Shown here: in pieces, positions 14,643-60,946 of the stretch
Numbering within the stretch: position 1 is the stretch's first letter
Layout of the letters: every line of letters starts with the position of its first letter
From: Candidatus Eiseniibacteriota bacterium
Lineage (GTDB): Bacteria > Joyebacterota > Joyebacteria > Joyebacterales > Joyebacteraceae
Direction of reading: 5' to 3'
Assembly: GCA_043819135.1 (NCBI GenBank)
Contig: JBDRFG010000107.1
Coordinates: forward strand, 31,002-95,001
DNA: 64,000 bases
Made by a program: the position numbers and the translations under genes
The notes under the pieces: model-generated
The model's database searches: none
What the model was told of the DNA's origin: nothing
What the model saw: only the letters and a program-made list of their open reading frames with translations

Positions 14643-14660
14643 AACTCACGCAGACGGAAG

Positions 14661-14692
14661 CGCCCCCGGCGAACCCGCCGGGGGCGTTCGTT
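14661..14692. terminator. Hairpin between convergent genes
   Basis: cgcccccggcg-aacc-cgccgggggcg. Confidence 0.7.
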
Positions 14693-14722
14693 ATTGGTAC
14701 TCCCTGCCGATTTGCTCCCAGA

Positions 14723-15760
14723 CTACCGATAGAGAACCTTGATGGTGGTCCAGGTCGCGTCCTCGACAGGCGACGGTCCCACGTAGCCGTCTATCTCGAC
14801 AATGTACTCGAGTCCGCACGGCTGGCACGCGAACACCGACGGTCCCACCCACAGCCAGTAGAGGCCGGGTCCGACCGTCTCGGTGAGCGTCGCCGGCTCA
14901 CACGGGGAAGCAGTCGCGCTACTGATCACAAGACCCGGGTCGTCGCACTCCAACGGAAGATCCGCATCCAGGAAGAAGATGAGCACCGGGAACTCAGCGG
15001 TCGCGGAGAACGTGATCGTGTTCGAAACCGAGACGTAGATCTGATACCAGTCGGTGTCCCGGCTGAAGTCGTCGAACGTGCCGCTCGTTCCGAATATCGT
15101 GATGGTATTGCTGCTCGGCATCACGGGCTGGAACACGGGCGGGTCGGCGTTGCATCCGCCGTTGAACGCGTCGATGTAGCCGGCGCCACACACGGCCTCG
15201 CCTTCGATGATCGCGCCCGGCGGCGGGGTGAGGTCGCACGCGTTCATCACGTCGATCTCGAGCACGTAGTCTCCGCAGTCTTCGTTGTAGCCGTCCACCA
15301 CGAAGTAGTATGTGTTGCCGGCGTAGAGAAAGACGTTCTCCATGAACGACTGGTAGCCCGGGACGCCGCAGTCCGCGTCGTCGTTACAGCAGACGACGTT
15401 CCCCTCGACATTCTCGAAGATGTAGACCTTGGTATCGTAGCTTGACGCGCAGAGGTCGACGTTCACAACGAGGTCTGTGGCTGCGGTGTAGGCATAGACC
15501 ACGTCCGGCGCCGTCGACTCGGGGTACGGACACGTGACGTCGTAGTCGTTGAGATACGCACACGTGTTGCCGGTGACGCTGAGAGGAAGGTCCGCGATCA
15601 CGATCGGACTCGCGATGTTGTCCCCGACTTCGCGTCCTTCGAACGTCGGCTCGCCACCCACGGCGGCGTCCTTCTCGGCGACGACCAGATGATCCGTGGT
15701 CGCGCCGCAGACGACGGCTGCTGCCGCAATCAGAAGAACCACAAGGCTAGCAACTCTCAT
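14723..15760 (-). CDS. Secreted Cys-rich protein with PPC-like repeats and C-terminal PVEDATWTTIKVLYR motif
   Basis: Signal peptide; APDVVY, YDTKVY, GNTYYFVVDGY, DTDWY motifs. Confidence 0.7.
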   Translation of the reverse strand: MRVASLVVLLIAAAAVVCGATTDHLVVAEKDAAVGGEPTFEGREVGDNIASPIVIADLPLSVTGNTCAYLNDYDVTCPYPESTAPDVVYAYTAATDLVVNVDLCASSYDTKVYIFENVEGNVVCCNDDADCGVPGYQSFMENVFLYAGNTYYFVVDGYNEDCGDYVLEIDVMNACDLTPPPGAIIEGEAVCGAGYIDAFNGGCNADPPVFQPVMPSSNTITIFGTSGTFDDFSRDTDWYQIYVSVSNTITFSATAEFPVLIFFLDADLPLECDDPGLVISSATASPCEPATLTETVGPGLYWLWVGPSVFACQPCGLEYIVEIDGYVGPSPVEDATWTTIKVLYR

Positions 15761-16085
15761 CTCAACACCTCCCAGAGAGTGACACTCCCTCAGTAACGCA
15801 AACGGATAGACTGAACGCGACGCACGGCCGCGCGCTCAACGAGCCGCGGGCAGTGCGACAGGGCATCCTCGACCCCTCTCCCGGCGGGTCGCTCTGCAAC
15901 TGGAACAGGGTCAGTCTATCACACATTTCCTCACAGTGTCAAGAATAGAGTCGCCCGCCCTCCCCGCGCCTGGAGGGCGAACGACGGGGCCGCGCCGCCG
16001 GTGCATGTCCGGCCCGGCCTGTGCTAGCATTGGGGCTCCGGAGCCGCAGCCGTGCGGCCGCCCCCTGAATCCCTGTGAGGCACTG

Positions 16086-16703
16086 ATGACCGCCCCGTCG
16101 AGGTACCCCATACCGGCGGCGACATGCAGGTCGGAAGAGACCATCCTCCGGAGTCGCTTCATAACGACGGTGGCCCACGCGGACACCGTCGAGGGAGCAA
16201 AGGCGTTCATCTCGGAGATCTCCGAGGAGTTTCGCGACGCGAACCACAACTGCTGCGCCTACGTGATCGGGCCTCCCGGCGACACCAGCCGCGTGGGTAT
16301 GAGCGACGCAGGCGAGCCCCACGGTACGGCCGGCCGCCCGATGCTGAACGTCCTTCTCGGCAGTGGGGTCGGTGACGTTGTCGCGGTGGTGACGCGTTAC
16401 TTCGGGGGCACGAAGCTCGGCAAGGGCGGGCTCGTACGAGCCTACAGCGGCGGCGTCAAGGCCGCGCTCGAGGGACTCGCTCTCACGGAACTCGTCGAGA
16501 CGACGACGCTTCGGGTGACCATGGCCTACTCGGACCTGTCCTCTCTCAAACACTCGCTGCCGCAGTTCGAAGCCCAAGTGACCAACGAGGACTACGGGAC
16601 GGACGTCAAGCTGGTCGTCGTTCTACCCGAGGAACACGAGGAGAGTTTCAAGGAGGCGCTGGCCTGGATGACCAACGGGAAGGCCGCCGTCGAGCGCGAG
16701 TAG
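16086..16703 (+). CDS. yigZ: YigZ/IMPACT family protein
   Basis: SRFI, ANHNCCAY, SDAGEPHGTAGRPML, VTRYFGGTKLGKGGLVRAY. Confidence 0.92.
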   Translation: MTAPSRYPIPAATCRSEETILRSRFITTVAHADTVEGAKAFISEISEEFRDANHNCCAYVIGPPGDTSRVGMSDAGEPHGTAGRPMLNVLLGSGVGDVVAVVTRYFGGTKLGKGGLVRAYSGGVKAALEGLALTELVETTTLRVTMAYSDLSSLKHSLPQFEAQVTNEDYGTDVKLVVVLPEEHEESFKEALAWMTNGKAAVERE

Positions 16704-16825
16704 TGCGCCGAGCGCTTGCCACGAAGGTCCCGATGACGTAAGCTCATCTATGGGATGCGCCGAGCCGCTCGTGAGCCCGGCGCTCGAGTGTCGCTGCCCT
16801 GTCCCATGTCGCGGGAGCCGATGGA

Positions 16826-17305
16826 ATGACCGAGAAGCAGAAGCCCGTCGAGATCAACTTCGAATTCCGTGAGAGGCTCAGCGAGGTCCTCGGCGGCAAC
16901 CACCACAACTACTGCTACCAGTGCGGGGCCTGCGTCGCGCAATGCCCGGCAGCGAAGTACAGCGGGCGCTTCAATCCAAGGTCGATCATGCTCGACGCGC
17001 TTCTGGGCCGCGAAGACATGCTCCTCGGGACGGATTCTCCCATCTGGTTGTGCACGAACTGCTACAGCTGCTACGAGCGATGCCCTCAGGACGTGAGACC
17101 CATCGAGGTCATCATCGCGCTCAAGAACATGGCGAACGAACGCGGCGCCGCGCCGGTGCAAATATCGTCTTTCACCGAGAACATCACGAAGACGGGCTTG
17201 TCCGGAATGGTCACGCCCGCCGTTCAGAGAATCCGCGAGAGCCTCGGCCTGCCGAAGATCACCGAGGTGCCTGTCGACGAGATGCTGAAGATCCTGGAAG
17301 ACTGA
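16826..17305 (+). CDS. hdrC: Heterodisulfide reductase subunit C-like 4Fe-4S dicluster protein
   Basis: CYQCGACVAQCP and WLCTNCYSCYERCP. Confidence 0.85.
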   Translation: MTEKQKPVEINFEFRERLSEVLGGNHHNYCYQCGACVAQCPAAKYSGRFNPRSIMLDALLGREDMLLGTDSPIWLCTNCYSCYERCPQDVRPIEVIIALKNMANERGAAPVQISSFTENITKTGLSGMVTPAVQRIRESLGLPKITEVPVDEMLKILED

Positions 17306-17316
17306 GGAAGAACCCG

Positions 17317-18192
17317 ATGCGAGTCACGCCTTTCTACGGCTGCATGATCCCCATCAAGTACCCTCAGATGGAGGCGGCGTTCAAGCGCACGATGCCCGGT
17401 CTCGGTGTCGACCTGGTCGACCTCGAGGGATTCACGTGCTGCCCCGACCCCATCTTCTACAAGGCGAAGGACGTGCTCGGGTGGCTGACCATCGCCGCCA
17501 GGAACCTCTGCATCGCCGAGGAGGCGGGCACCGTCATCGTCACGCTCTGCAGCGGCTGCACGGCGACGCTCAAGGAGGCGGTGTTCCTGCTCGCGGAAGA
17601 CGAAGAACTCAAAGAGAAGGTCAATCGCAGACTGGCGAAGATCGGCAAGGAATACAAGGGAACCACGAAGGTCGAACACGCCGTGGTGCTCATCAGGGAC
17701 GAGCTCGGGATCGAGAGGGTCAAGGAATCCGTCGTCCGGCCGCTGGACGGCATCAAGGTGGCCATCCATTACGGCTGCCACCTCCTCAAGCCCAGTCAGA
17801 TAATGCACGTCGATGACGCCGACTATCCATCGATCCTCGAGAACCTCATCCGCGCGACCGGTGCCACTCCCCTGTCGCACAATGAAGAGCTCCTGTGCTG
17901 CGGGAAGGGCTGCATCGACGATGACATGCCGGTCGACATGGTCTACGACATCTTCACGTCGATCAGGGACTCGGGCGCGGACTGCATGGGGCTCATCTGC
18001 CCGACGTGCTTCTCGTCGTTCGACCTCGGGCAGATCGTCGTCGGCAGGAAGAAGGACACCAAGTTCGACATCCCCGTTATCTACTACTTCCAGCTCCTGG
18101 GTCTCGCGCAGGGGCTCTCGCCTGAAGAGATCGGCCTCAACCTGCACAAGGTCAAGGCCGACCGCGTGCTTGAACTCGTGGGCGCGGCGTAG
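17317..18192 (+). CDS. hdrB: Heterodisulfide reductase subunit B (CCG domains)
   Basis: FYGC, TCCP, CSGC, HYGCH, CCG, CPTC motifs. Confidence 0.88.
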   Translation: MRVTPFYGCMIPIKYPQMEAAFKRTMPGLGVDLVDLEGFTCCPDPIFYKAKDVLGWLTIAARNLCIAEEAGTVIVTLCSGCTATLKEAVFLLAEDEELKEKVNRRLAKIGKEYKGTTKVEHAVVLIRDELGIERVKESVVRPLDGIKVAIHYGCHLLKPSQIMHVDDADYPSILENLIRATGATPLSHNEELLCCGKGCIDDDMPVDMVYDIFTSIRDSGADCMGLICPTCFSSFDLGQIVVGRKKDTKFDIPVIYYFQLLGLAQGLSPEEIGLNLHKVKADRVLELVGAA

Positions 18193-18231
18193 GCGCCCCC
18201 TGGCCGCGCTGTGGCCTGTACCACTCTGTTC

Positions 18232-18260
18232 TTGCCGCGCGGTCACTTCTGTGCTATAAT
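18232..18260 (+). promoter_or_regulatory. Sigma70-type promoter
   Basis: TTGCCG-17 bp-TATAAT with extended -10 TG. Confidence 0.7.
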
Positions 18261-18380
18261 AGAACCACGTGAGAAGACATGCATCGAACAGGTCGTGTCC
18301 CGACCGTCGGGCATGTTTGCCACTTCGGGTAGCGGGGAACTGAACAGCCGCGCCCGTTTGTTTCTTTGGAGATCGCATCT

Positions 18381-19205
18381 ATGCGCGCCGTCGCACTTGT
18401 CACTACAGCACTGACGCTGGCAATCCTGACCATCGCCGCGCCTGCCATGGCGGTCGTCACGTTCTTCGATGTCATCTCTGACTCGGTGGCGGTCGCGGGG
18501 CCTCCTTACCCGACCTCATGCCACCGAACCGACGTTGCCCACGAGGCGTCGGGCGTGTTCGAGCGCGACGGACAGCTGGCACTCGGCGTCAGAAGCGCGA
18601 CGGACGGCGCGGGCAGCCCTCTAAGCATCGAGCTACGGGCGGGCGAAGCCCATGTACCGGGGTGTAACTTCGAGGAAGACACGCACTTCGATGTCATCTA
18701 CTGCTCCGATCCCGATGGCGCCGCCCTTCCCTCCGAGAGCGTCGTCGCTGTCTTCATCGAGTTGACATCGTTCGGCGGGCGGCGTGGCAAGCTGGTTACG
18801 CTGCACCCGGAGCTTCCGATAACCGACCCCGGACGTTTTTTCGACACGCACTCGGGCGCTTCCTCATTGGAGATCGTCTGCCGTGTGGAGTTCGACCGGG
18901 GCGTCCAGCATGAACTCACACTTCGCGGCGAACTGCCTGAGGGACTGAGTCTGACGAGCACTGCCATTGTCATCCGGGAGCAGAGTCTGGAAAGTGGCGG
19001 GCGGGCAGATCCAACCGTCGTGGACAGCTACTTCACCGCGAACCCGGACGGCTTCTTCGACATCCGGCTCCGCCTCGAAGGCGCAGCCTGCCTCGACGAC
19101 CTTTCGACGGTCCTGTCGCTGACGTTCAGCGGCCGCTTCCTGGGAGGGACATCCCCGGTCGAAGCAACGACCTGGGGCGCAATCAAGGCTCTCTACGACA
19201 ACTAG
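18381..19205 (+). CDS. Secreted hypothetical protein with C-terminal PVEATTWGAIKALY motif
   Basis: Signal peptide, RBS, conserved C-terminal motif, downstream terminator. Confidence 0.7.
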   Translation: MRAVALVTTALTLAILTIAAPAMAVVTFFDVISDSVAVAGPPYPTSCHRTDVAHEASGVFERDGQLALGVRSATDGAGSPLSIELRAGEAHVPGCNFEEDTHFDVIYCSDPDGAALPSESVVAVFIELTSFGGRRGKLVTLHPELPITDPGRFFDTHSGASSLEIVCRVEFDRGVQHELTLRGELPEGLSLTSTAIVIREQSLESGGRADPTVVDSYFTANPDGFFDIRLRLEGAACLDDLSTVLSLTFSGRFLGGTSPVEATTWGAIKALYDN

Positions 19206-19247
19206 AAGCGAGCGCTTCACAACGCGATCGTCCTCAAAGCGCACACA

Positions 19248-19284
19248 GCGGCCCCTGCCCAACGGCGGGGGCCGCGTTCTCTTT
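19248..19284 (+). terminator. Intrinsic terminator
   Basis: gcggcccctgcc-caac-ggcgggggccgc followed by ttctcttt. Confidence 0.7.
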
Positions 19285-19406
19285 CAGCTGGATGTCGCGT
19301 TGAAGGAGCGGCGTCAGCAGGCGCCACTGGATTTCTTCCCGCAATCATAGGATGATGTATCCACTGACTGCCGACGCACGGGGAAGTCCAGGGAGAGCAA
19401 CGTGTG

Positions 19407-20120
19407 ATGAGTCAGATCTTAAGCATTCCGCTCGCGTCCGTCGCGCCCACGGAGGACGCCGTCCTTCGGGCGATGGGCGTCCCCGTGGACCATGACCAGG
19501 GGCCGCGAGTCGCCCAGTTGGTCGCACAGGCTCTCGACGCGCTTCGCGCCGAGGCCGAACCACGAGGGATCGTCGCGGAAGTCGACACGGGCGAGTTCGC
19601 CGTCATCTATGAGGGCGCCGGCGACAACGACGACCCTTCCCCACTCCGCGAGATATTCCCTCGCGCTGAGAGCTTGACGCTCTTCGCCATCACCCTGGGC
19701 TCCTCGCTCAGCGACCGTGTCCCGGCGCTCTTCGACGGCGGGGAGCTCGCGCTCGCGGCCACGCTGGACGCAGCGGCCTCCGAGGGAACGGAGCTGGCGG
19801 GAGTCCACCTGGACGGCGTCGTGCTGGCGGGCGCGCGGGCGTCAGGGCGAGCGAGCGACGCCGCGAGGATCCTCCGATACAGCCCTGGCTACTGCGGCTG
19901 GAACCTCACGGGACAGCGCGCGCTCTTCTCCGCGCTCGGACCGGAGGCGATCGGCATCCGGCTGACGGAGAGCTGCCTGATGAAACCCGTCAAGTCTATC
20001 TCCGGCGTCATGGTCGCGGGGCCTCCCGAGATCCACGATTTCGAAGACAACTACGACTTCTGCTCATCCTGCCGGACGCACGACTGCCGGCGGCGGATCG
20101 AAGAGCTAACATCGAGGTAA
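19407..20120 (+). CDS. Stand-alone B12-dependent methionine synthase activation-domain protein
   Basis: FAITLG, RYSPGYCGW, GIRLTESCLMKPVKSISG, C-terminal CxxCxxxxC. Confidence 0.8.
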   Translation: MSQILSIPLASVAPTEDAVLRAMGVPVDHDQGPRVAQLVAQALDALRAEAEPRGIVAEVDTGEFAVIYEGAGDNDDPSPLREIFPRAESLTLFAITLGSSLSDRVPALFDGGELALAATLDAAASEGTELAGVHLDGVVLAGARASGRASDAARILRYSPGYCGWNLTGQRALFSALGPEAIGIRLTESCLMKPVKSISGVMVAGPPEIHDFEDNYDFCSSCRTHDCRRRIEELTSR

Positions 20121-20200
20121 CCCCAAGGAAACACGCGTGAAGCGAATGGTTCAACCGCTCCGTGGGCCGCGCTGACCAAGAGACCCCACCCTGAACGTGG

Positions 20201-20235
20201 CAGGGCCGCCCCCGTAAGGGGCGGCCCTGTGTCTT
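20201..20235. terminator. Terminator hairpin between convergent genes
   Basis: cagggccgcccc-cgtaa-ggggcggccctg. Confidence 0.7.
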
Positions 20236-20261
20236 TATGCCAATCCGTGGCTATGCAGCGG

Positions 20262-20477
20262 CTAGGCTTCGATCCTCGTGACGTTCTCCGCCGCCGGACC
20301 CTTCTCGCCCTGGACGACGTCGAACTGCACGCGCTCGCCCTCACCCAGAGTCTTGAACTCGTCGCCACCCTGGATCGCCGAATGGTGAACGAAGAGGTCC
20401 TTCGAGCCATCCTCCGGCGTTATGAAACCAAAGCCCTTGCTGTCGTTGAACCACTTCACGGTTCCTGTCGTACTCAC
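20262..20477 (-). CDS. csp: Cold shock protein
   Basis: [31 protein letters not shown]. Confidence 0.95.
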
Positions 20478-20749
20478 TGTGTTCTACCTCTCATGTTCTC
20501 GTCGGGAGGGACTGCCCCTCAGCCGACGATTGTCCTGTCGGGGCCGGATCATCCGAGCCACCGATTTCCTTTTCACGGGGCCTGTCCGCCCCTGCAGGTA
20601 GCGCCACACCGATCGTCGATACCGTTCCACACTCTCGGGCACCTCATGGTGCCCCCGGAAAACAAAAAAGGACCGGCGTGTGCGCCTGGTCCCTCCTTCG
20701 AGTTTCCGGATATGTTGCCATACCAACGTGGTCGCATCTGCTGAAGGAC

Positions 20750-20778
20750 AGTATAGTCACAGGGGCAACCGAAGTCAA
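20750..20778 (-). promoter_or_regulatory. csp promoter implying a ~265-nt 5' leader
   Basis: Minus strand TTGACT-17 bp-TATACT. Confidence 0.75.
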
Positions 20779-20810
20779 GCCCGGGTGGAGGATTCTACCC
20801 CAAAGTCGAG

Positions 20811-21278
20811 CTACGGCCCTCCGGAAGCCTGCAGCATCGCATCCAGCGTCTGCAGGAACTGCGATCGGTCCCGTTTGTCGAACGGCCTGGACCCTCCGGT
20901 CTGGATCCCCAGGTCTCGAAGCTCGGAAGCGAGTTCGCGACCCGCCATCGCCTCCCCGATCGAATCCTCCATGAACTCTCGCCCGCGCAGTCCTAGCGCC
21001 CGCGCGCCCAGTTTGAGACAACGGTCGGCAAGAGGGATGTCTCCGGTGACCACGATGTCGCTCGCGTTCACGTGCTCGACGATCCAGTTGTCCGCGGCGT
21101 CGAAATCGCCCTTCACGACAACGAGTTCAAACCCGTCCTCCTCGGGAACGCGCATCCACGAGTCTGCCACGAGCGTCACGCGAACACCGTAGCGTCGCGC
21201 CACGCGGTAGACCTCCTGCTTGACGGGACACGCGTCGCCGTCGACGAAGATGGTGAGCACGTCGATGTCACTCCTCAT
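20811..21278 (-). CDS. YaiI/YqxD family (PIN-like) protein
   Basis: IFVDGDACPVK, DAADNWI, DIVVTGDIPLA. Confidence 0.9.
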   Translation of the reverse strand: MRSDIDVLTIFVDGDACPVKQEVYRVARRYGVRVTLVADSWMRVPEEDGFELVVVKGDFDAADNWIVEHVNASDIVVTGDIPLADRCLKLGARALGLRGREFMEDSIGEAMAGRELASELRDLGIQTGGSRPFDKRDRSQFLQTLDAMLQASGGP

Positions 21279-21327: not shown

Positions 21328-22674
21328 CTAGATCACTTTCCGGAGCTTCCTGATCGCGGCGCCCGGCCGGCGCACGGCCTTCCGTATGACTCGGGGATTG
21401 AACGCGTTCGCGAAGAGCAAGTAATGATTGATCTTGTTCCTGTAGCGCGTGATGTCGGCCTGAGTGACGTGGCGGAGCGTCATCGGCGCCCGACCCCTGA
21501 GGCTGTTCTCGGCGTTGTCGAACCCGTCGTAGTCCTCGATGGACAGGAGGCCCCGCTCCTTGGCAAACCGGTGCATGTGAGTCCCAGGGAGCGGCGTCGC
21601 GGTGTAGACAACCCAGCTCCGAGGCTTGATGCGCTTTACGAGGTCGTAGGTCATCTTGAGATCTTCCAGCGTCTCGTCTGGCGCCCCGAGCATCAGAAAA
21701 GCGTGCGGCAGTATCCCGAGCTCGTGGCACCACCGGAAGGCCTGCTCGGTCTCCGCTGGGTCCGTGCGCTTGTTGTAGAACTTGAGTACATCGGGCGACC
21801 CGCTCTCCACTCCGAAGCCTATTTGCACGCAGCCGGATTCGCGCATCATCCTGAGCTTATCGTACGTCACCGTGTCGACGCGGGAGTTCGCCTGCCATCG
21901 GATCTCGACACCGCGGCGCTGAAGCTCATCCCGGAGTTGTACGAACCACTCCACGTCGAACAGCGTCAGCGTATCATCCTTGAAGTAGACGTCTTTGTCG
22001 CCTGCTATCGAGAGCGCGTGCTCGATCTCGTCCACAATGCTCTCGGGCGAGCGCTTCCTGACACGCGGGCCGAAGAGCCGCTCCACCGTCGGCTGGCAGT
22101 AGATGCAGTTGAAGGAACAGCCTCGGCTGGCCATGATGCCGATGGTAGGGTAATCGGAATAGTCGATGAGGTCCCTGGCGGGAAAGGGAACCGCGTCGAG
22201 ATCCGAGATAAAGCCCTCGCGGCCGTTGGCTCGCACACGTCCATCCTCCATCCAAGCGAGCCCAGGACACTCGCGGGCGCGCTCCCGGCCGAGGAGCTCC
22301 GTGAACTCCAGAACGGTACTCTCGGCCTCACCGAGGAACGCGTAGTCGAAACCCGCCCCGAGGGCGTCTTCCGTAGCTACGGTCGCGTGGGGTCCACCAA
22401 TCACGGTGGGCGTCCCAGGCGCAAGCCTCTTGGCGTAGCCCAGCACGCCCACGGCCTTCCCGAACATCGCTGAACTTGACGATGTGCCGATCCAGTCGGC
22501 GCCGTCGAGAGCGCCATCCAGAACGTCAAGGCTTTTCGCGAAGGTCAGGTCAACGAAGCGAACGTCGTGGCCGGCCCCGCGCAGAACGGAGGCCACGTAA
22601 AGGACCCCGAGGGGCTCCTCGAGCCCTCCGGCGAGCATGGTTCTGAAGCGGGGGTAGACCAGGGCAACCTTCAT
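21328..22674 (-). CDS. B12-binding radical SAM protein
   Basis: PLGVLYVAS, IGGPHAT, SRGCSFNCIYC, GVESGS. Confidence 0.92.
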   Translation of the reverse strand: MKVALVYPRFRTMLAGGLEEPLGVLYVASVLRGAGHDVRFVDLTFAKSLDVLDGALDGADWIGTSSSSAMFGKAVGVLGYAKRLAPGTPTVIGGPHATVATEDALGAGFDYAFLGEAESTVLEFTELLGRERARECPGLAWMEDGRVRANGREGFISDLDAVPFPARDLIDYSDYPTIGIMASRGCSFNCIYCQPTVERLFGPRVRKRSPESIVDEIEHALSIAGDKDVYFKDDTLTLFDVEWFVQLRDELQRRGVEIRWQANSRVDTVTYDKLRMMRESGCVQIGFGVESGSPDVLKFYNKRTDPAETEQAFRWCHELGILPHAFLMLGAPDETLEDLKMTYDLVKRIKPRSWVVYTATPLPGTHMHRFAKERGLLSIEDYDGFDNAENSLRGRAPMTLRHVTQADITRYRNKINHYLLFANAFNPRVIRKAVRRPGAAIRKLRKVI

Positions 22675-22803
22675 TGCGCTTCCAGGTTCAGGGCGGGCTC
22701 GATCCATCCCGACCGACGCTCACGATGTTCCCACGAATCGCTCTCCATCGCAAGGGAGCGTTCGAGAGAGCGGCCCTCACCTGCTCAGGTAAGGACCGCT
22801 GGA

Positions 22804-22836
22804 GCTGGCTCCCCACGGTGGACGTGTTTCGAACTC
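22804..22836. repeat. att-like site 1 (33-bp direct repeat, tRNA 3'-end-like core), preceded by hairpin 22770-22799
   Basis: gctggctccccacggtggacgtgtttcgaactc, identical to 25306-25338. Confidence 0.85.
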
Positions 22837-22930
22837 CTCTGTACCGCACACGGTTTCTTGGACACAATCCCACTCTGTTCAGGTCCTCTCGGGCGTTTGT
22901 GGGTCCGGCATGGAGTCGACCGACTCGACG

Positions 22931-22939
22931 TGCTATAAT
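22931..22939 (+). promoter_or_regulatory. Extended -10 promoter for amylase gene
   Basis: TGCTATAAT ~57 nt upstream of ATG 22996. Confidence 0.55.
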
Positions 22940-22995
22940 AGTACAGGATCTTTTCGCATATCCAGACGTCCCCTTGCAGAAAGCGAAGACCCGCC

Positions 22996-25239
22996 ATGAA
23001 CGGCAGCATGCTGAGAGCACTCACCCTCGTGGTACTCGTCACGGCGCTCGTCACCGCTACCAACGCCCAGGCCGTGGAGGTCACCTTCCGGGTCCGCATG
23101 GCCTACCAGGTCGAGCTGGGCAACTTCGACCCCTTGAACGACTTCGTGGACCTCGCCGGCACGTTCAACGACTGGGGCAGTAGCCCGCTCACGCCCCTGG
23201 CCGATGCCGACGGCGACACCATCTACGAGGTCACCCTTGGCGCCTTCACACCGTCTGAGTATATCGAATTCAAGTTCCGCATCAACGGCCAGTGGGACGG
23301 CAGCGAGGAGTTCCCGGGCCCCGGCAACAACCGCGTCTACACTGTGCCGGCAAGCGACGACACCATCCTCGTCTGGTACAACGACTACGTGTCGAACGGC
23401 GGTATCGGCGAGCTGCACTGGTGGAACGACACGGTCTTCTACGAGATCCTTGTGCGCAGTTTCTACGACAGCGACGGCGATGGGATCGGTGACTTCCAGG
23501 GCCTGACGAACAAGCTCGACTACCTCAACGATGGTAACCCGGCCACCGACGACGATCTCGGAATCACGGGCATCTGGCTCATGCCCATCAACGATAGCCC
23601 TAGCTACCACGGCTACGACGCCGTCGACTACCGCTCCATCAACCCTGATTACGGAACCATGGCCGATTTCGAGGCGTTCCTCGCAGCCGCACACGCGCGC
23701 GGCATCAAGGTCATCATCGATTACGTCATGAACCACTGCTCCGACCAGCACCCCTGGTTCGTGGAATCCGCCCAGAACAACCCGGCCTACCGCGATTACT
23801 TCCGCTGGTCGCCAAGCGATCCCGGCGGGTCCGGACCCTGGGGTCAGGACGTCTGGCACTGGTATTCTTCGGGGTGGTACTACGGCCTCTTCACCGGCAG
23901 CATGCCGGACCTCAACTATGAGACGCAGGCCGTTAAGGACTCGATGTTCGACACGGCCACCTACTGGCTCGACACGATCGGCGTCGACGGCTTTCGTCTC
24001 GACGCCGTGCTCTACATCATCGAGGAGGGCAATCAGCTCCAGAACACGGCGTCGACGCTGCAGTTCTGGGCTGACTACAACGCGCACGTCAAGTCGGTGA
24101 ACCCCGACGTCCTGTCCGTTGGTGAAGCGTGGACCTCCACGAGCATCGTGCTTCAGTACGTCACGCAGGACCGGCTGGACCTCTGCTTCGAGTTCGATCT
24201 GTCCTACGCCACCCTCAACGCGGTCAACTGGGGCGATGCCGGGTCACTGAGTGGCAAGGCCGACCAGGTCTACAATCTCTACCCGCACCTTCAGTTCGGC
24301 ACCTTCCTCACCAACCACGACCAGAACCGCACGTTCACGGTGGTCGGTGAGGATGAGGGGAAGGCGAAAGTCGCCGCGGGCATCCACATGACCCTGCCGG
24401 GCGTACCGTTTGTCTACTACGGCGAGGAGATCGGCATGGTCGGCAGCGGGGATCACCTGAACATCCGCACGCCGATGCAGTGGACCGACGGGACCAACGC
24501 CGGCTTCACTACGGGCTCGCCCTGGCAGACGATCAACAGCAACTACCAGCAGTACAACGTGGCCGTGGAGGAATCGGACACGGGGTCGTTGCTCAACTGG
24601 TACAAGCGTCTGATAGACGTGCGCAACCAGACGCCGGCCCTGCGGCGCGGAACGCACGATCCGTTGGCGGGCTCCGAGTCACCGGTCCTGGCCTTTGTGC
24701 GACGCCACGAGGAGCAGACCGTGCTAGTCATGGCCAACACCGCGTCCAACGCTCTCGGCAACATCACGTTGGCCGGATCCTCGAACAGCCTCGTGCCCGG
24801 CGACTACACACTTGTAAACCTGCTCGATCCCGGCGATACCCTCGACGTCACGGTCAGCCCGGCGTACGAGATCACCGGTCTGAGCCTGGCGGGACACGAG
24901 GTGGCAGCCTACGAGTTCGCCGGCGAGAACGGCGTGGAAACACCCGACGACCTGCCGGGAACTGGCCTCCGACTCGAGCGGAACTATCCCAATCCATTCA
25001 GTCCCTCGACGACCATCCGTTACTCGTTGCCGACTCGGTCCCATGTCCGACTTGGCGTCTACGACGTCGCCGGTCGTGAGGTGGGCGTGCTCCAGGACGG
25101 GGTGCAGGCGGAGGGACCGCACGAGGCGCGGTGGGAGGGTGCAGATCGCAGCGGGCAGCCCCTGAGCGCGGGGATGTACTTCGTGCGTCTGGCCGCCGGG
25201 GGTGAGTCGAGGATGTCCAAGATGATGCTCATGAAGTGA
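22996..25239 (+). CDS. Secreted GH13 alpha-amylase (SusG-like) with N-terminal CBM-like and FlgD-type C-terminal domains
   Basis: DSDGDGIGD, SYHGYD, DYVMNH, DGFRLDA, VGEAW, FLTNHD; NYPNPF...AGMYFVRL. Confidence 0.92.
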   Translation: MNGSMLRALTLVVLVTALVTATNAQAVEVTFRVRMAYQVELGNFDPLNDFVDLAGTFNDWGSSPLTPLADADGDTIYEVTLGAFTPSEYIEFKFRINGQWDGSEEFPGPGNNRVYTVPASDDTILVWYNDYVSNGGIGELHWWNDTVFYEILVRSFYDSDGDGIGDFQGLTNKLDYLNDGNPATDDDLGITGIWLMPINDSPSYHGYDAVDYRSINPDYGTMADFEAFLAAAHARGIKVIIDYVMNHCSDQHPWFVESAQNNPAYRDYFRWSPSDPGGSGPWGQDVWHWYSSGWYYGLFTGSMPDLNYETQAVKDSMFDTATYWLDTIGVDGFRLDAVLYIIEEGNQLQNTASTLQFWADYNAHVKSVNPDVLSVGEAWTSTSIVLQYVTQDRLDLCFEFDLSYATLNAVNWGDAGSLSGKADQVYNLYPHLQFGTFLTNHDQNRTFTVVGEDEGKAKVAAGIHMTLPGVPFVYYGEEIGMVGSGDHLNIRTPMQWTDGTNAGFTTGSPWQTINSNYQQYNVAVEESDTGSLLNWYKRLIDVRNQTPALRRGTHDPLAGSESPVLAFVRRHEEQTVLVMANTASNALGNITLAGSSNSLVPGDYTLVNLLDPGDTLDVTVSPAYEITGLSLAGHEVAAYEFAGENGVETPDDLPGTGLRLERNYPNPFSPSTTIRYSLPTRSHVRLGVYDVAGREVGVLQDGVQAEGPHEARWEGADRSGQPLSAGMYFVRLAAGGESRMSKMMLMK

Positions 25240-25305
25240 TCGGTCGCGGGAACCGCACTCCGTAATGAAAGAGGCCCCGATCTTAGCAGACCGGGGCCTC
25301 CGCTT

Positions 25306-25338
25306 GCTGGCTCCCCACGGTGGACGTGTTTCGAACTC
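25306..25338. repeat. att-like site 2 (33-bp direct repeat), preceded by hairpin 25271-25300
   Basis: Exact copy of 22804-22836. Confidence 0.85.
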
Positions 25339-25415
25339 TTGACTGGAGCGCGGAGGCCTTGGCGGCGGGCACATGCAGCCTGGCGCAATGAGCTTGCGAG
25401 GCTGCTCGGCGGGCA

Positions 25416-26972
25416 CTATCTCCCGGGGCTCGGTGAGTGCACGCGACTTCGTCCAGCGCGAGCCGGCCTCGCGCCCCTCCCGCTCTGCGCGCTGTCGGAT
25501 GGTGCCTTTTCAGCAATGGCGTAGAAGTACACTTCCTCCGGATCCGGATCGCGGAAGCTCGCGTACACGTCGTACGCGGCGATCAGCTCGAGTCCGTGCA
25601 TTGCCGTGATGAGGCCCGTGATCTTCCCACCGCGCCCGAGCTTCACGTAGTAGCTCGGCTGGTACTCCGCGAGCTTCCACTCCAAATCGCGAGTGCCGTG
25701 CATGTCGTTTATCGACCGGACACCCGTCGCCAGGCTGATCGAGTTGGCGAAGTTCCCGAGCAGGTACGGAGACTCCCCCGGGCGCGAGCTCATGTGGGTC
25801 GCAACGTCTCGGGCCATACTGACGAACGTGTAGCTCGGAGATCGCACGTATCGAACCATCCTGCCTGCATCGGCGAAGACTAGGAGTCCGACTGCCAGCA
25901 CGATGAGAAGCGGCTTGACTCGCTCAGGCTTCCGAGCCAATACCCCGGCCATGACGCCCAGTACCATGGCCGCAGGGATCACTGCCGACACCAGGTAGCG
26001 AGGCGGCTGATACGTGCTCGCGCTGACCATCAGGACGTGTCCGACGAGCCAGACGAGCGAAATCGCCGCCGCCCTGTTGCGGCGGAACCGACGCGACGCC
26101 GCGAAGAACACCGGGACGAGCGCAAGGGCCAACGGGGACATGATCCTGTCGACTCGCGCCCAGAGGCGCACGGTCGGCCAGAGGTTCCTCAGAGCGTACA
26201 GAGGGTGCGGCTCGAAGCGCTGCGCTCTGTGGAAGGTCGCGAAGTATCGGACATCCGGAGCGTAGAGCCACCGAGCCGCACAGAAATACATCGACACAAC
26301 GCCTGCGGCGACCGCTGCGGCGGTCGCGCACCCCGCGGCACGCTGCCGGCTGGATTCGCCCGAAGTCCAGGCGGCGTACAGGAGCGCCGGGAGGCCTGCC
26401 AGCACGGTCGTCTTCGTGAGGATGGCCACGCCGAATACGAGCCCGGACAGGCCGCTCGTGACAAGGCCGAACCTCCGGCCCGGATGCGCCGCGAGGACGA
26501 GGCTCAGAAGCACCAGGGACGCCGCGGGGAGGTCGGCGATGGCCAGCCTGCTGTACGCGAAGACGATGAAGCTGCCCGATAGGAGAGCGACCGCGACAAG
26601 CCCTCCCAGCGTGTTCGTGTGGCGACTCACCAGGAGGTACGCCAGCGGGAGCATCGCGACGAAGAAGCAGACGATCGTGGCTCTGGCCGAGCCGAGACTC
26701 ATGCCGGCGACATTGAAGACCGCACCCTGTACGAGGTGGAGGACCGGCATCCCCACCATGACGTTGAGATCGCCCTCAACGTGCCAGCGGCCGGTCGTCG
26801 CCCGCGCGACCGCCCCGCCCGAGTACCATCCCTCATCCGTGTACAAGACCCGAGACCAGGTGACCCCCCTCGGGAAATCCGCTTCGAGATGTAGGAAGTG
26901 GGCACCCACAGCCACCAGAATGAAACATAGCAGGACGCCGGTGGCCAGGCGCGTGGGGCTACAGGCACGCAT
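25416..26972 (-). CDS. ArnT/PMT-like GT-C membrane glycosyltransferase
   Basis: YTDEGWY after first TM, many TMs, LTKTT, PPRYL. Confidence 0.75.
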   Translation of the reverse strand: MRACSPTRLATGVLLCFILVAVGAHFLHLEADFPRGVTWSRVLYTDEGWYSGGAVARATTGRWHVEGDLNVMVGMPVLHLVQGAVFNVAGMSLGSARATIVCFFVAMLPLAYLLVSRHTNTLGGLVAVALLSGSFIVFAYSRLAIADLPAASLVLLSLVLAAHPGRRFGLVTSGLSGLVFGVAILTKTTVLAGLPALLYAAWTSGESSRQRAAGCATAAAVAAGVVSMYFCAARWLYAPDVRYFATFHRAQRFEPHPLYALRNLWPTVRLWARVDRIMSPLALALVPVFFAASRRFRRNRAAAISLVWLVGHVLMVSASTYQPPRYLVSAVIPAAMVLGVMAGVLARKPERVKPLLIVLAVGLLVFADAGRMVRYVRSPSYTFVSMARDVATHMSSRPGESPYLLGNFANSISLATGVRSINDMHGTRDLEWKLAEYQPSYYVKLGRGGKITGLITAMHGLELIAAYDVYASFRDPDPEEVYFYAIAEKAPSDSAQSGRGARPARAGRSRVHSPSPGR

Positions 26973-27144
26973 TCCGAACTGCCTCCCGGTGAAGACAGGG
27001 ATGGTGCTGGCACCAACTGTCGACCAGCATAGACGACTGTCGCCTACGAATCAACGGACGAGACATCTTCGCTGACTGACCGCATGATAACCCAGGAAGC
27101 GCGTGAGCGGAGAGCCAGACCCCGCCAGGCCGGGCTCTCGCGTG

Positions 27145-27711
27145 CTGGCTCCCCGAGTGGGTCGGACTACTAACCGACGCAACGTCGCAGAGCCTCAGGT
27201 ATGGTTTCGGATTGTCCACGTCGCGGCACATGGTCACCACAACACACTTGGCGACGGCATGCGCGAACAGGCGGTCGAGGTTGCCTTGGGGCCGAAGGGG
27301 GCGTTCAAGAACGGCAACGCGGGTGCCGTGACGCGCCAGGTAACGGCGGATCGGGTCGTCAGTGCTCTACCGGAGCCCCGGGCCAAACCGAAACCGCCCA
27401 AGAAGCCTAGGACGCCTCGCGTGGTTGAGCTCCTACGGACGGCGATGGAATGGCAACGCCAGCTTGAAGCTGGTGAAGCGGACACGCAAATCGAGATAGC
27501 CCGACGGGAGAGAATCACTCGGGCTCGCGTGACCCAGATTATGGGGATGCTCCGCCTCGCGCCGGAGATTCAGGAGCACATCCTGTCCATGCCCGATATG
27601 GTCCGTCGGCCTGCGATTAGCGAGCGGGCGTTGCGACCCATCGCCCAGATCGAGGATCCGAGGCGGCAGCTTGCGGAGTTCCGAGATCTGTCTCCAGCAA
27701 GGACCTCATGA
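27145..27711 (+). CDS. HTH-containing domain of the kind associated with large serine recombinases; in frame with the att core (possible internal ATG 27259)
   Basis: AMEWQRQLEAGEADTQIEIARRERITRARVTQIMGMLRLAPEIQEHIL; frame open from the att core. Confidence 0.7.
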   Translation: MAPRVGRTTNRRNVAEPQVWFRIVHVAAHGHHNTLGDGMREQAVEVALGPKGAFKNGNAGAVTRQVTADRVVSALPEPRAKPKPPKKPRTPRVVELLRTAMEWQRQLEAGEADTQIEIARRERITRARVTQIMGMLRLAPEIQEHILSMPDMVRRPAISERALRPIAQIEDPRRQLAEFRDLSPARTS

Positions 27712-32521: not shown

Positions 32522-33714
32522 ACGAGACGAATCCTCCCCGTGAGCAGTTCCTGCATCATGCCCTGCTTGAGGTTGCGCGCCTTCGTGAGCTTCGCTTCCA
32601 GTGCAGCGATACCGTCGTCCATGTCGGAAAGGACGGCAGCTATGGCGGTCTGTTCGTCTTCGCTCCGAGGCATCTCGATGCCAAACCCCTTCACATCCGT
32701 TGAGTTGACGGAATCAAACGTCGAACCCCTAGAGAGCCTCGCCCAAGCAGGCTCTTTGGCGATTAGGGCGTGGTAGAGGAAGTCGTTTGCGTGGCGGATG
32801 GCACACACGCCTCGACCGAGGCAGACATCGAACAAGGCGCGCGAGATGCCTCCCACTGGAGCACGAACAGACATAAGGATGTCGCCACACCGACCTCTCT
32901 TGGTGATCTCGGCTGTAAACACTCGTTTGATGGTCCTGCGGTTTCTGATGTCCGCGTTTCCCTGAATCAAAGGCAGTCCTTCACCCCTGTTGTTGTAGTG
33001 TCTTGAGCTTGGCGACTGACCCATTACGATTTCGGCCACTTCCCCCAGCGGCTTCGACACCCACTCCCCGCCGAAACCCAACAGGCGCTTCTTGCCGGTG
33101 AGTAGCTCCTGCATCGCGCCGTACTTGATATGACGCTTCTTGGTGAGTAGCTGCTCCAAGGACTCAATCAGGGTATCCGCATCGCTCAGCGCCTCAGTGA
33201 TGGCTTCTTGCTCGGCTTTCGTGGGAGGGAGTGGAATGGGGACTGTCTCGAGCTTGTCTTTGGGAAGATGAGCAATGCTTGTTTGCGTGACGAAGCTTAG
33301 CAGAGACCCATTTGACGCGAGCCGCAGGAGAACATAGTGCATCAGCGTGACGCTGTATTCGCGTCTCGGTCTTAGACGATGCAACGCCTTCTGGTAGTAG
33401 CACTCCTCAATAGGCTCACGCCAAACCGCACAACGCCCAACCTCTCCTCCCTCGCAGACAAGTAGATCACCGGCACGAAGCCTGAAACGCAGAAGATCGG
33501 ATGGTGTCAGCTTGACAACACCAAGATCAACTACGTCAATCCGCCCCCATTGAACAGCACGGTTGCCCAAGAAGGGCTTCGGTACGCCAACGTTCTTCTG
33601 AGAATCGAGCATCTTGCCCAGCTGGATGGAGAACTCGGCGCCAACCTCCGTGACCTCCCAATCCTCCGGGATCAGCCCTACCTCTGTCCGCTTGAATCCG
33701 GCTATCACTTCCAT
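32518..33714 (-). CDS. hsdS: Type I RM specificity subunit
   Basis: IPEDW, EQEAITEALSD / EQTAIAAVLSD, two MQELLTG repeats. Confidence 0.95.
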   Translation of the reverse strand: MEVIAGFKRTEVGLIPEDWEVTEVGAEFSIQLGKMLDSQKNVGVPKPFLGNRAVQWGRIDVVDLGVVKLTPSDLLRFRLRAGDLLVCEGGEVGRCAVWREPIEECYYQKALHRLRPRREYSVTLMHYVLLRLASNGSLLSFVTQTSIAHLPKDKLETVPIPLPPTKAEQEAITEALSDADTLIESLEQLLTKKRHIKYGAMQELLTGKKRLLGFGGEWVSKPLGEVAEIVMGQSPSSRHYNNRGEGLPLIQGNADIRNRRTIKRVFTAEITKRGRCGDILMSVRAPVGGISRALFDVCLGRGVCAIRHANDFLYHALIAKEPAWARLSRGSTFDSVNSTDVKGFGIEMPRSEDEQTAIAAVLSDMDDGIAALEAKLTKARNLKQGMMQELLTGRIRLV

Positions 33715-36410
33715 GAGAAGCCCATCTTCTCGAGGTGACGGTTCACCTTGGCCTCCAGGTCGGCCACGCGGCTCACCATCTGCGGCAACGGGTCTTCGTA
33801 GCGTTCGGCCAGTTCCCTAACGCGGAGGGCAAGTTGCCGGCTGACGCGATTCATCTCACCCCGTACGGCGACATCGAGTGCAGTGAGCCACTTGTCGTCC
33901 GCAACCAGCATCTTTGTCTGAGACTCGGTGAGCTCCGGATACCTAGCGTAGACCCGAGCGTCTAGGTCGGCCCTGGCCTCCTTGATGCGCTTCCTGAGAT
34001 CGGCCTCGTCGGCATTGAGCTTCAGCAACTCGCTGAGCACCTTGAGTTCGACAAGTTCCTCGTTGTCTGGATCCCGCTGAAGGAGGAGAGCGATCTCTTT
34101 CTGCGCACTCTCAAACAGCCGTTTCGTTTCCACCTTTGAATCCCGTGCGGCTTCGGCGGCGTCAAGATACTCGCTCAGAGTGCTTCTCTCAGCCGAGTTC
34201 TGCGTTGACTTCGCCCTCTTGCTGACCGCCGCCTTGGTGATATTGCCCCTGCTATTCCTCAACGCCTGCAGGCGGGAGTCATCCTTCAGCTCTGCGACTC
34301 GAAGCGCGTTCGCCTCTCGCAGTTCGGTGGCTTTGCGGAACGCATCATACTCACCAGGGTTGAATCTGCTCCAGGCAGACTCCAGTGCCTCGTTCCACGC
34401 CGCTTGGGCATCGGTCTTGTTGGCAACCGTACAGAGAATGCCCTCATCCCCACCGTGCTCTTCCTCCAGCTCAGTGATCTTCGCGGTGATGTCCTCCAAA
34501 TCGGCCGCGAGTTGATCGATGTCTTCCTGCTCGCTGGCAAAGTAGCGGGCGACAATGAGAGCCTTGGGAATGAGGTCACAAGTCCAACCCTTGTCCCTCT
34601 CCTTGCCCTTCTTGTCCGTGACAAGGACACGCGTGGTTTCGGCCTGCCATCCGTCGGCGGCGACGAGGTAGCAGTCATCCTGCATGGTCTCGTCCCAGTA
34701 GTCCATCAGGCACTGATAGATGTCGTAGGGATCGACGAGTGACTTGCCAGCATAGTGGGCAAGCAGGCCCTCGGACAGTGCAGTGATGACCTCCTTGGGA
34801 TGGCAGTCGACCGTCAACGCCTTGAGCGGCGCGGCGTTCGTCCGCCGCCACGCGGCGAAGTGAGCGTTCATGTCAGCGGCGAACGAGGTGAATTCGGGGT
34901 GCTCATAGATGGCGGACTCGATGTCCGGCTTCTCCAAGCAGAGATTGACGTAGCCGGGGCGGCTTTCTTCGAATAGGGTGTGCCGGAGCTGCGGGCAGAC
35001 GGCCCAGTAGTGCTGCAGCGCGTCGATTTCGGCTGCGGGGATGCCGCCCTGTAGGTGGCCTGCGATGTCCTGCAGGTCCTCGGGAGTCTGGCTGTCGATG
35101 TAGCGCGGCAGGTTGAGGTTGAACTCGTTTTGCTCGATCTCCGTGAAGGGGACCATGCGCGAGTACTTCGGGACGTCGAGTCGTTTGTTGAAGACATCCA
35201 CAATCTTGTGTATGTCCCGGGAGCGCAGACGGTTCTTCGGACCTTCCTTCATGAAGCCGCCGCTGGCATCAATCATGAAGATGCCCTTGCTGGCCTGGGC
35301 GTCCTTCTTGTCTATGACCACGATGCAGGCGGGAATACCGGTGCCGTAGAAGAGGTTGACGGGCAGGCCGATGATGCCCCTGATGTAGCCCTTGCGCACG
35401 AGAGCGCGGCGGATGTCGGCTTCGGCGTTGCCGCGAAACAGCACACCGTGAGGCAGGATGCACGCACCCTTGCCGGTGCTCTTCAGGGAGCGGACGATGT
35501 GCAACAGGTAGGCGTAGTCACCCTGTCTAGTGGGCGGCACGCCAAAGGACTTGAAGCGCTCGAAGGGGTCACTCCGAGGATCGAGGCCGTTGCTCCAGCG
35601 CTTGTCGGAGAAGGGCGGATTAGCGACGACGTAGTCGAAGGTCTTGAGAGTGTCGCCGTCCTTGAACTTGGGATTGGCCAGCGTGTTGCCCTGCGCGATC
35701 AACGCGGTCGGGTTGTTGTGCAGGATCATGTTCATCCGTGCGAGGCCGCTGGTGGCTTCGTCTTTCTCCTGCCCGTAGAGCGTGACGGCAGTGCCAGCCT
35801 CGTCGCCAACCTTCAGAAGCAGCGAACCTGAACCGCAGGTGGGGTCGTACACGGTGGTGGAGGCGCTGGTCTCCGCGTCTCGGATGCCGCTGATCTGCGC
35901 CATGATGCGGCTGACCTCGGCGGGAGTGTAGAACTGCCCCTTGCTCTTGCCGCTTTCGGTGGCGAAGTGGCGCATCAGATACTCGTAGGCGTCACCCAAG
36001 ATGTCATCGTCGTCAGCTCGGTTCTTGGAGAAATCGAGCGCGGGGTTCTCGAAGATGGCGACGAGGTTTGTGAGCCTGTCCACCTTCTCCTTGCCGCTGC
36101 CGAGCTTGGCGGCGTCATTGAAGTCCGGGAAACCGGAGAGCTTGTTGACATTGGCCAGTGGGGCGATGATCTTCTTGTTGATCTGGTCGCCGATGTCGCT
36201 CTTGCCCTTCAGGGCGACCATGTCCGCGAAGCTGGCGCCGGGCGGGATTGTGATAGGCGCGTATCGCTGACCGGCGTACTTGTCACTGACGTACTTGATG
36301 AAGAGCAGAACGAGGACGTAGTCCTTGTACTGGCTCGCATCCATGCCGCCGCGGAGCTCGTCGCAGCTCTGCCACAGAGAGCTATAGAGCTCGGATTTCT
36401 TCAGGGCCAT
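33705..36410 (-). CDS. hsdM: Type I RM methyltransferase subunit, long form
   Basis: GQFYTP, YDPTCGSGSLL, VANPPF, LPHGVLFRG. Confidence 0.97.
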   Translation of the reverse strand: MALKKSELYSSLWQSCDELRGGMDASQYKDYVLVLLFIKYVSDKYAGQRYAPITIPPGASFADMVALKGKSDIGDQINKKIIAPLANVNKLSGFPDFNDAAKLGSGKEKVDRLTNLVAIFENPALDFSKNRADDDDILGDAYEYLMRHFATESGKSKGQFYTPAEVSRIMAQISGIRDAETSASTTVYDPTCGSGSLLLKVGDEAGTAVTLYGQEKDEATSGLARMNMILHNNPTALIAQGNTLANPKFKDGDTLKTFDYVVANPPFSDKRWSNGLDPRSDPFERFKSFGVPPTRQGDYAYLLHIVRSLKSTGKGACILPHGVLFRGNAEADIRRALVRKGYIRGIIGLPVNLFYGTGIPACIVVIDKKDAQASKGIFMIDASGGFMKEGPKNRLRSRDIHKIVDVFNKRLDVPKYSRMVPFTEIEQNEFNLNLPRYIDSQTPEDLQDIAGHLQGGIPAAEIDALQHYWAVCPQLRHTLFEESRPGYVNLCLEKPDIESAIYEHPEFTSFAADMNAHFAAWRRTNAAPLKALTVDCHPKEVITALSEGLLAHYAGKSLVDPYDIYQCLMDYWDETMQDDCYLVAADGWQAETTRVLVTDKKGKERDKGWTCDLIPKALIVARYFASEQEDIDQLAADLEDITAKITELEEEHGGDEGILCTVANKTDAQAAWNEALESAWSRFNPGEYDAFRKATELREANALRVAELKDDSRLQALRNSRGNITKAAVSKRAKSTQNSAERSTLSEYLDAAEAARDSKVETKRLFESAQKEIALLLQRDPDNEELVELKVLSELLKLNADEADLRKRIKEARADLDARVYARYPELTESQTKMLVADDKWLTALDVAVRGEMNRVSRQLALRVRELAERYEDPLPQMVSRVADLEAKVNRHLEKMGFSWK

Positions 36411-60750: not shown

Positions 60751-60946
60751 AAGTACAACACACCGCTTATGCCCGGCGTCAAGCGCTTTCCTAACGTCCC
60801 CCGTTGGGTCCTGCCCACCCCTTTACGTGTAGGTGACACGGGCCGCCTTCTCCAGGGCCCCGGGAATCCCCTTGATGAGGATGGCCACCAGAGGTAGAGC
60901 TGTACCTGGGACGCGACGTAACTCACATACTCACAGGAGGTTACGG

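Follow-up and report, generated by a model that had tools for sequence, protein, structure and literature searches.

The window analysed here (the whole 64,000-nucleotide stretch from Candidatus Eiseniibacteriota bacterium) lies on contig C107 of genome G000; other G numbers denote the genomes of relatives. It contains four short cores resembling the 3' end of tRNA-Asn. Hairpins precede the first three, the two intervals between these hold single genes, and the third and fourth bound a 35-kb element that encodes a large serine recombinase (LSR). The features of this region are the following.

21328-22707, minus strand: B12-binding radical SAM gene (Pfam), left of site 1, patchy among relatives
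22769-22800, minus strand: hairpin 1, terminator-like in the tRNA direction (fold of -31.5 kcal/mol for 22755-22815, z -2.71)
22806-22836, plus strand: site 1, tRNA-Asn 3'-end core with a type-A attP arm (outer motif 19 nt off centre)
22996-25239, plus strand: secreted alpha-amylase (PF00128) with a FlgD/Por-type tail (PF13860), cargo of interval 1
25270-25301, minus strand: hairpin 2 (z -3.41), of a hairpin family common to 17 array junctions (left flanks)
25308-25338, plus strand: site 2, core with a type-A arm, equal to site 1 over 33 bp; also in G002, where a kinase gene comes next
25416-26972, minus strand: GT-C glycosyltransferase (PMT_2, PF13231; Pfam), cargo of interval 2
27110-27139, minus strand: hairpin 3, weak (z -0.90)
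27146-27711, plus strand: site 3, attR of the 35-kb element, core with a type-D arm whose open reading frame (ORF) encodes the C-terminal extension severed from the LSR
27146-62483, no strand assigned: 35-kb autonomous LSR element (type I restriction-modification, Nmad3, Prim-Pol, AAA_24, DUF669, ParB-N methylase)
60947-62659, plus strand: LSR (PF00239 Resolvase, PF07508 Recombinase and PF13408 Zn ribbon, all above cut-off; open frame)
62455-62502, plus strand: site 4, P arm (LSR tail), core at 62478 and tRNA-Asn-like 3' fragment, an attB-type half (motif 14 nt off centre; matches the tRNA-Asn ends of relatives)

Sites 1 and 2 share an exact repeat of 33 bp (22804-22836 and 25306-25338, spacing 2502 bp), of which about 4e-10 would be expected by chance in 64 kb. 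Site 3 has nothing but the core GCTGGCTCCCC (TGG at 27146) in common with them; its arm is different. Each interval carries one gene, and Pfam detects no recombinase family in either. The common architecture and gene content described in the initial annotation of this DNA are thus confirmed, with hairpin 3 as the weak member. Translated from TGG, the arm reads WLPTVDVFRT, which had been likened to the C-termini of tRNA-targeting LSRs; this likeness is not borne out, as neither the peptide nor the looser pattern WLPxVDxFR forms the tail of any of 120 LSR homologs.

The nature of the sites is apparent from the 35-kb element, which the initial annotation missed together with the fourth core. The longest ORF of the LSR begins at 60833, its true start being uncertain. 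The protein scores 207 bits with the NCBIfam model of CcrB, 176 with CcrC and 130 with CcrA (cut-offs 900, 900 and 700). Its frame runs through the fourth core into a 25-nt tRNA-like 3' fragment. At the core, the ORF of site 3 continues the frame of the LSR (510 + 188 aa), and fused proteins consisting of LSR and extension exist (P0031, P0043, P0063 and P0112); integration therefore splits the LSR gene. The extension (27146-27711) has no Pfam or NCBIfam match and gives a weak ParB-HTH lead in Atlas; it could be a directionality regulator.

Measured from the central TC, the outer motif (CGAAC or CTAAC) is 19 nt away on the P arm and arms 1-3, and 14 nt away on tRNA-type arms. In serine integrases, according to PMC3783163, the outer binding motif is 5 bp nearer the centre in attB than in attP, and the two distances found here are this 5-bp shift. 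The left halves of the hairpin sites lack the outer motif. In relatives and in viral contigs, the LSR family of the 35-kb element reads into tRNA-Asn(GTT); of 16 full-length LSR relatives on viral contigs whose tail was visible, most read into tRNA-Asn-type ends. The association of the sites with an LSR and a tRNA end, suggested earlier, is therefore supported by the attachment geometry: they are attR-type junctions at the tRNA-Asn 3' end.

No full tRNA was found within the window by ARAGORN, and Rfam gave no matches on it. Among the tRNAs called in G000, none has a 3' end equal to the array core. The tRNA-Asn of this genome departs from the core at positions 7-9, putting the crossover no later than the TC; at site 1 we infer that it is the TC at 22810-22811. 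The tmRNA ends unlike the array core. Two near-identical tmRNA genes with different downstream hairpins occur on contigs C26 and C109 of G000; either a similar array may have formed at the tmRNA, or the bin may contain two strains.

Most of the 35-kb element has a GC content of 0.58-0.61, down from about 0.63-0.66, and some of its genes are phage-like. In G003 the same downstream gene stands behind a site composed of hairpin, core and fragment with the element absent, the equivalent of an empty site. In a Pfam scan of 18 ORFs of the element there is one serine recombinase and no second, small one. At 901 aa, HsdM (33705-36410) is unusually long; it is followed by Nmad3 and several ORFs with no Pfam match (36719-44050), possibly a region of defence cargo.

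Similar sites are widespread in the family. The A-arm pattern was found in 10 of 41 genomes searched, every one in the family of the window, and the B-arm pattern in 12 of 31. From contigs we listed 90 sites and 45 between-site intervals in ten genomes and one metagenome contig; for the intervals, one duplicate contig and two doubtful Glu-type matches were dropped and five sites seen earlier were added by hand. The median interval is 2502 bp; 44 are shorter than 9 kb, one contains a full LSR and two contain short LSR pieces. Most carry one or two genes, chiefly for secreted proteins with FlgD-type tails, kinase-TPR proteins and sensor kinases, in both orientations and with their own promoters. 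Pfam covered 49 of the 55 interval ORFs of at least 150 aa; no recombinase family was found in 47 interval proteins, no tyrosine integrase was matched in the intervals, PF00589 (IntI-type) had no match on contigs C107, C172, C50 and C42 of G000, and the ORFs scanned included no conjugation genes. A second run in G000, with seven sites, lies on C172. Relatives differ in which cassettes they carry and in what order, in agreement with the mobile units postulated in the initial annotation.

The arms fall into several related types. LSR tails are joined to A, B, D and fragment arms, and they occur on foreign arms in L100, P0003 (A arm), L185 (B arm) and window site 4. An LSR fragment (aa 413-441) lies 66 nt ahead of some cores, and the distance from arm to gene is variable for one gene. 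Units with both arms are present in G008 and on C70 of G001; the two window units have a P' arm and, where the P arm would be, a hairpin. Read in the WLP frame, the B arms show a clear coding signal (82 synonymous and 104 non-synonymous changes, vs 33/148 and 13/167 in the comparison, with 3 of 20 arms left out as duplicates or by the indel filter). The signal of the A arms is weak (18 synonymous, 44 non-synonymous). The idea that B arms are attR sites of a tyrosine integrase was rejected because of this coding signal in the frame of the LSR tail. The A-arm pattern matched no viral contig, and searches of 10 viral records yielded no autonomous element with an A arm. It also matched records titled Actinomycetota, Acidobacteria and Nitrospinaceae; at three Actinomycetota-type loci the sites are in line with tRNA-Asn and lack strong hairpins.

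Hairpins are a regular component of the sites. One of -22 kcal/mol or better precedes 11 of 30 cores in G000, vs 2.9% of random windows. Hairpin 2 resembles the hairpin behind tRNA-Asn in G010. Among 19 tRNA-Asn loci (17 genomes), the neighbour of the gene is an LSR tail at nine, often a remnant of 120-140 bp, and a hairpin at nine; one locus lies at the contig end. The nine hairpins are all different, and the hairpin behind the tRNA varies with the adjacent unit. The proposal that each cassette brings a fresh terminator holds as far as this exchange is concerned. A consensus scan of 22500-27500 gave no canonical U-tract call, for which reason the hairpins are putative terminators; when U-tract orientations were compared, the hairpin stems ran into the tracts themselves.

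Movement of units at the cores is best documented for the GT-C interval. Searches of 30 relatives did not find the body of this gene; the homolog P0122 is 97% identical. The unit is about 99% identical in contigs of three other studies (three of the four runs examined, out of 24 listed; low depth, contigs only, other strains). These contigs stop matching the window at 25305, 25311 and 27155 and continue with 311-591 other letters. Their flanks switch at cores, the identity of about 99% ending at most 9 nt from the core starts. We consider the GT-C interval the best-supported mobile cassette.

Exchange behind the tRNA is also observed. A segment of 310 nt beside tRNA-Asn in G015 matches internal cassette ends on C172 of G000 and on C70 and C34 of G001 at 90-92%, the match ending at the core. 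Shorter matches connect G010 with G016, and G017 with G013, G046 and G003. Of 67 alignment ends in array zones, 18 fall at sites, vs 1.65 under a uniform null, which overstates the clustering; in the preferred comparison, restricted to site-bearing spacers, 15 of 39 ends lie within -15 to +37 of the core, a zone with a 10% share. In G008 and G046 the called sites are concentrated close to the tRNA.

The amylase interval probably has a different history. G002 is syntenic with the window over 14088-21277 and again from 22830; between these, 1.1 kb of other DNA replaces the radical SAM gene and the hairpin, core and arm of site 1. Since G002 is syntenic around this block but lacks site 1, the site appears to have entered together with the radical SAM block. 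The radical SAM gene was found in two of 31 genomes at E<=1e-80, and in G006 it has no site. Farther right, G002 shares the amylase, hairpin 2 and site 2 with the window before the kinase gene. The amylase is present in 19 of 31 family genomes, mostly with different neighbours, and related hairpins lacking a core are found 3' of it in several. We propose that it is an older gene whose left site came with the radical SAM block; the earlier view of this interval as a faithful att-bounded cassette is not supported, given the synteny with G002 and the many homologs free of sites.

The repeats of the window are LSR-made junctions at the tRNA-Asn 3' end, within a variable stack of small units free of recombinases. 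The window is probably part of an array of non-autonomous LSR cassettes, formed by tandem accretion downstream of tRNA-Asn. This reading starts from the observed attachment geometry, target, split LSR gene, variable recombinase-free units and hairpin exchange behind the tRNA. In the mechanism we envisage, single LSRs, distantly related to Ccr, would integrate DNA at the TC of the tRNA acceptor end. With attP inside the LSR gene, integration cuts off the C-terminal extension, as the sequence shows. Deletions would reduce autonomous elements to one or two genes behind a P' arm, closed by an LSR tail or a hairpin ahead of the next core; several such units are seen, and this is their presumed origin. 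Deletions may sometimes fuse arm and cargo to a downstream hairpin. Units keeping LSR-binding arms might then be moved, singly or in blocks, by the LSR of a neighbouring element, as suggested by the breakpoints at cores and the swaps of position. New units would enter at the tRNA end, and their hairpin would become the new downstream hairpin of the tRNA, while older units, farther from it, would lose their sites with presumed age and be shuffled by non-site-specific exchange. The GT-C interval would be a live cassette and the 35-kb element an autonomous member inserted into a site of the array. Because the left halves lack the outer motif, recombination between a hairpin-arm site and a hairpin-tRNA site might give products of the same types and be reversible in the absence of a recombination directionality factor (RDF). 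Large serine integrases of the attP/attB type are strictly directional and need an RDF for excision; the analysis identified none here. PMC11470126 describes CcrAB as removing tandem recombinase-less cassettes, singly or together.

A number of observations weigh against this reading. For canonical serine integrases, neither attB nor a second attR serves as a partner of attR (PMC3783163). The contig of the window ends 1.5 kb past site 4 and does not reach tRNA-Asn, which is on C42, so that the linkage of the two is inferred. Of the alignment ends in array zones, 49 of 67 lie away from sites, and homology stops at 9 of 13 shared sites but likewise at 21 of 27 spacers having no site. The genomes in these counts include kin that are not independent, and the clustering at sites is inflated in that common arms and hairpin families can extend an alignment as far as a site. 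The breaks beside the GT-C unit were called at 88% likeness, a level at which a diverged homologous neighbour would also look foreign. The four runs, with the limits given above, yielded no circles, including the cassette circles suggested earlier, no back-joints and no core-to-core deletions. Of 21 amylase loci, that of G000 alone has the left site, and just those of G000 and G002 have the right one; the homologs mostly lack flanking sites, and in G008, G010, G011, G019 and G046 the gene lies distal to the tRNA or to the called sites of its contig, with site-free ends (in G011 there are no called sites in 33 kb).

Several of these points are in keeping with inert scars. Here each site would be the attR of a decayed full LSR element, and gene-plus-hairpin segments would be acquired through exchange, homologous or illegitimate, for which the tRNA and a conserved flank served as anchors, the LSR never moving recombinase-less units. 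We regard this as unlikely, if to be taken seriously. It would account for the gene-by-gene mosaic found with or without sites, the coding remnants in the B arms, the LSR fragment before some cores, the variable distances from arm to gene and the lack of circles. It does not fit well with the A arms, which are conserved at 0.88-0.97 over positions +1 to +29 and at about 0.4 past +44 (41 sites), a sharp drop just past the LSR-binding length, even if this conservation is partly ascertained because the sites were located by arm patterns. The abrupt end of the GT-C identity beside the core starts, the presence of one segment next to the tRNA in one genome and internally in others with the junction at the core, and LSR elements joined to array-type arms also speak against it. 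The initial annotation had opposed an array mobilised in trans to scars of lost integrases, and each holds in part: the arms are coding remnants of LSR elements, yet units change neighbours at cores.

A dedicated integron-like system, in which the LSR adds and removes single cassettes reversibly at the tRNA with no directionality factor, given sites with one specific half, and also captures genes distal to attR, seems to us quite improbable. The left halves lacking the outer motif, the hairpin with no LSR tail at 9 of 19 tRNA-Asn loci, the one or two genes of most intervals and the several related arm types would suit such a system. No integrase is resident at a fixed platform, however, the LSR tail adjoining the tRNA at only 9 of 19 loci and often as a remnant; the cassettes have their own promoters and either orientation, and much of the shuffling is independent of sites. 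That the sites are dispersed repeats, whether terminators or sequences like repetitive extragenic palindromes (REP), and resemble a tRNA end by coincidence is hardly credible, even though core-less hairpins related to those of the sites lie 3' of the amylase in several genomes and a few of the strong hairpins at G000 cores have no known arm. The exact 29-mer has just three copies in the genome, two in the window and one on C172, all in co-oriented arrays, and it is therefore not a dispersed repeat, an outcome on which the initial annotation had made its proposal depend. The arm is non-palindromic, mirrors the P arm of the LSR and is found joined to LSR genes. The LSR reading through the same core into tRNA-Asn refutes this candidate.

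Beyond the accretion array favoured above, it is conceivable, if in our view unlikely, that the system is a tRNA-anchored serine-recombinase equivalent of the integron. Its sites would be specific in one half, single genes would be gained and lost reversibly at the tRNA with no RDF, each cassette would bring the next terminator, a C-terminal domain fused only in the circular state would switch LSR activity, and the stack would diversify secreted and signalling proteins.

Other observations concern the cargo and the targets. Many secreted proteins of the arrays, among them those at 14723-19205 of the window, end in a motif like SPVEATTWGAIKALY, in a tail having no Pfam match; it is possibly a lineage-specific sorting signal. 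Other secreted array proteins end in a FlgD-type tail, and both tail types are common cargo. A segment of about 500 bp at 20200-20780, putatively a cold-shock protein gene, recurs in many arrays at 77-84% identity, sometimes as an att-bounded unit of its own. The same arm types are found on tRNA-Asp and tRNA-Glu 3'-end cores, some of them inside tRNA-Asn arrays (G000:C34:3943, C149:11253, C172:6710 and C91:3579; L123; L105:5244; L119:6871). The gene at 62525-63634 has an Asn-type fragment ahead of it in the window and in G003 but one of the Asp type in G002. Units may pass from one tRNA target to another. A full-length mutated copy of tRNA-Asn with a changed anticodon, uncalled by ARAGORN, occurs at L115:3096-3167 (G015:C89) and acts as an internal arm behind an LSR tail. 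Within one genome, sites follow two different host blocks (G000:C50:20684-23140; G001, L053 and L086), which may reflect two array loci or else a single, very long region.

Among known systems, the staphylococcal cassette chromosomes (SCC/SCCmec) resemble the present array in that an LSR builds tandem arrays of att-delimited units, devoid of recombinases of their own, at a conserved gene's 3' end (PMC11470126 and PMC3780952), and CcrB is the best NCBIfam model of the LSR described here. SCC/SCCmec targets rlmH/orfX, here the target is tRNA-Asn(GTT); the Ccr recombinases are replaced by one LSR well below their cut-off (207 bits vs 900). The SCC cassettes tested in PMC11470126 measure 17-26 kb, compared with a median of 2.5 kb for the present units. 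Unlike in SCC, attP lies in the LSR gene, and mobility, demonstrated by experiment for SCC, is here presumed.

The ssrA islands of Dehalococcoides are likewise tandem islands behind a stable-RNA gene, with a CcrB-like LSR (DsiB) overlapping the att site at its 3' end; PMC3146451 reports 15 ssrA islands having no integration module and reads the distal region as fixed old islands. They have an ssrA direct repeat and a six-gene module with DsiA and DsiB, whereas a tRNA-Asn core and one serine recombinase among the ORFs scanned are found here. In the present arrays 44 of 45 units have no integration module, most end in a swappable hairpin, and at attP the LSR gains a defined C-terminal domain by fusion. 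Tandems of cis-mobilizable elements (CIMEs), integrative and conjugative elements and integrative and mobilizable elements are similar in that decayed elements keep their att sites and accrete at a tRNA 3' end (PMC5704250). CIMEs have no integration or transfer genes, just as 44 of 45 intervals here have no full LSR. CIMEs retain both of their own att ends, whereas most of the units described here have no true P arm at their tRNA-side end and would thus be incomplete in attL and attR; the chemistry is that of a serine instead of a tyrosine recombinase, and among the ORFs scanned there is no conjugation gene.

In integrons, IntI recombines attI with attC, a folded single strand with R and L boxes. 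The array resembles them in its one-gene units, apparently newest at one end and exchanged between strains. It differs in having no IntI or tyrosine integrase in the intervals, sites that fit double-stranded LSR attachment geometry instead of a folded attC, and genes that point both ways with their own promoters.

We found no description of small LSR cassette arrays at tRNA-Asn in the literature, our search being thin on subscription papers; the general architecture is already known from SCC and Dehalococcoides. The array would give an uncultured sediment lineage a concrete and testable route for swapping single genes for secreted and signalling proteins, and would extend relaxed, SCC-like LSR behaviour to a widespread family targeting tRNA-Asn. 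An LSR that recognizes one half-site, and whose gene is re-tailed on integration, bears on the setting of directionality and on integrase tools. The array works like SCC composite islands, ssrA islands and CIME accretion, yet it is a member of none of these groups, from which it differs by its small, mostly one-gene units, its hairpin ends and its defined LSR extension.

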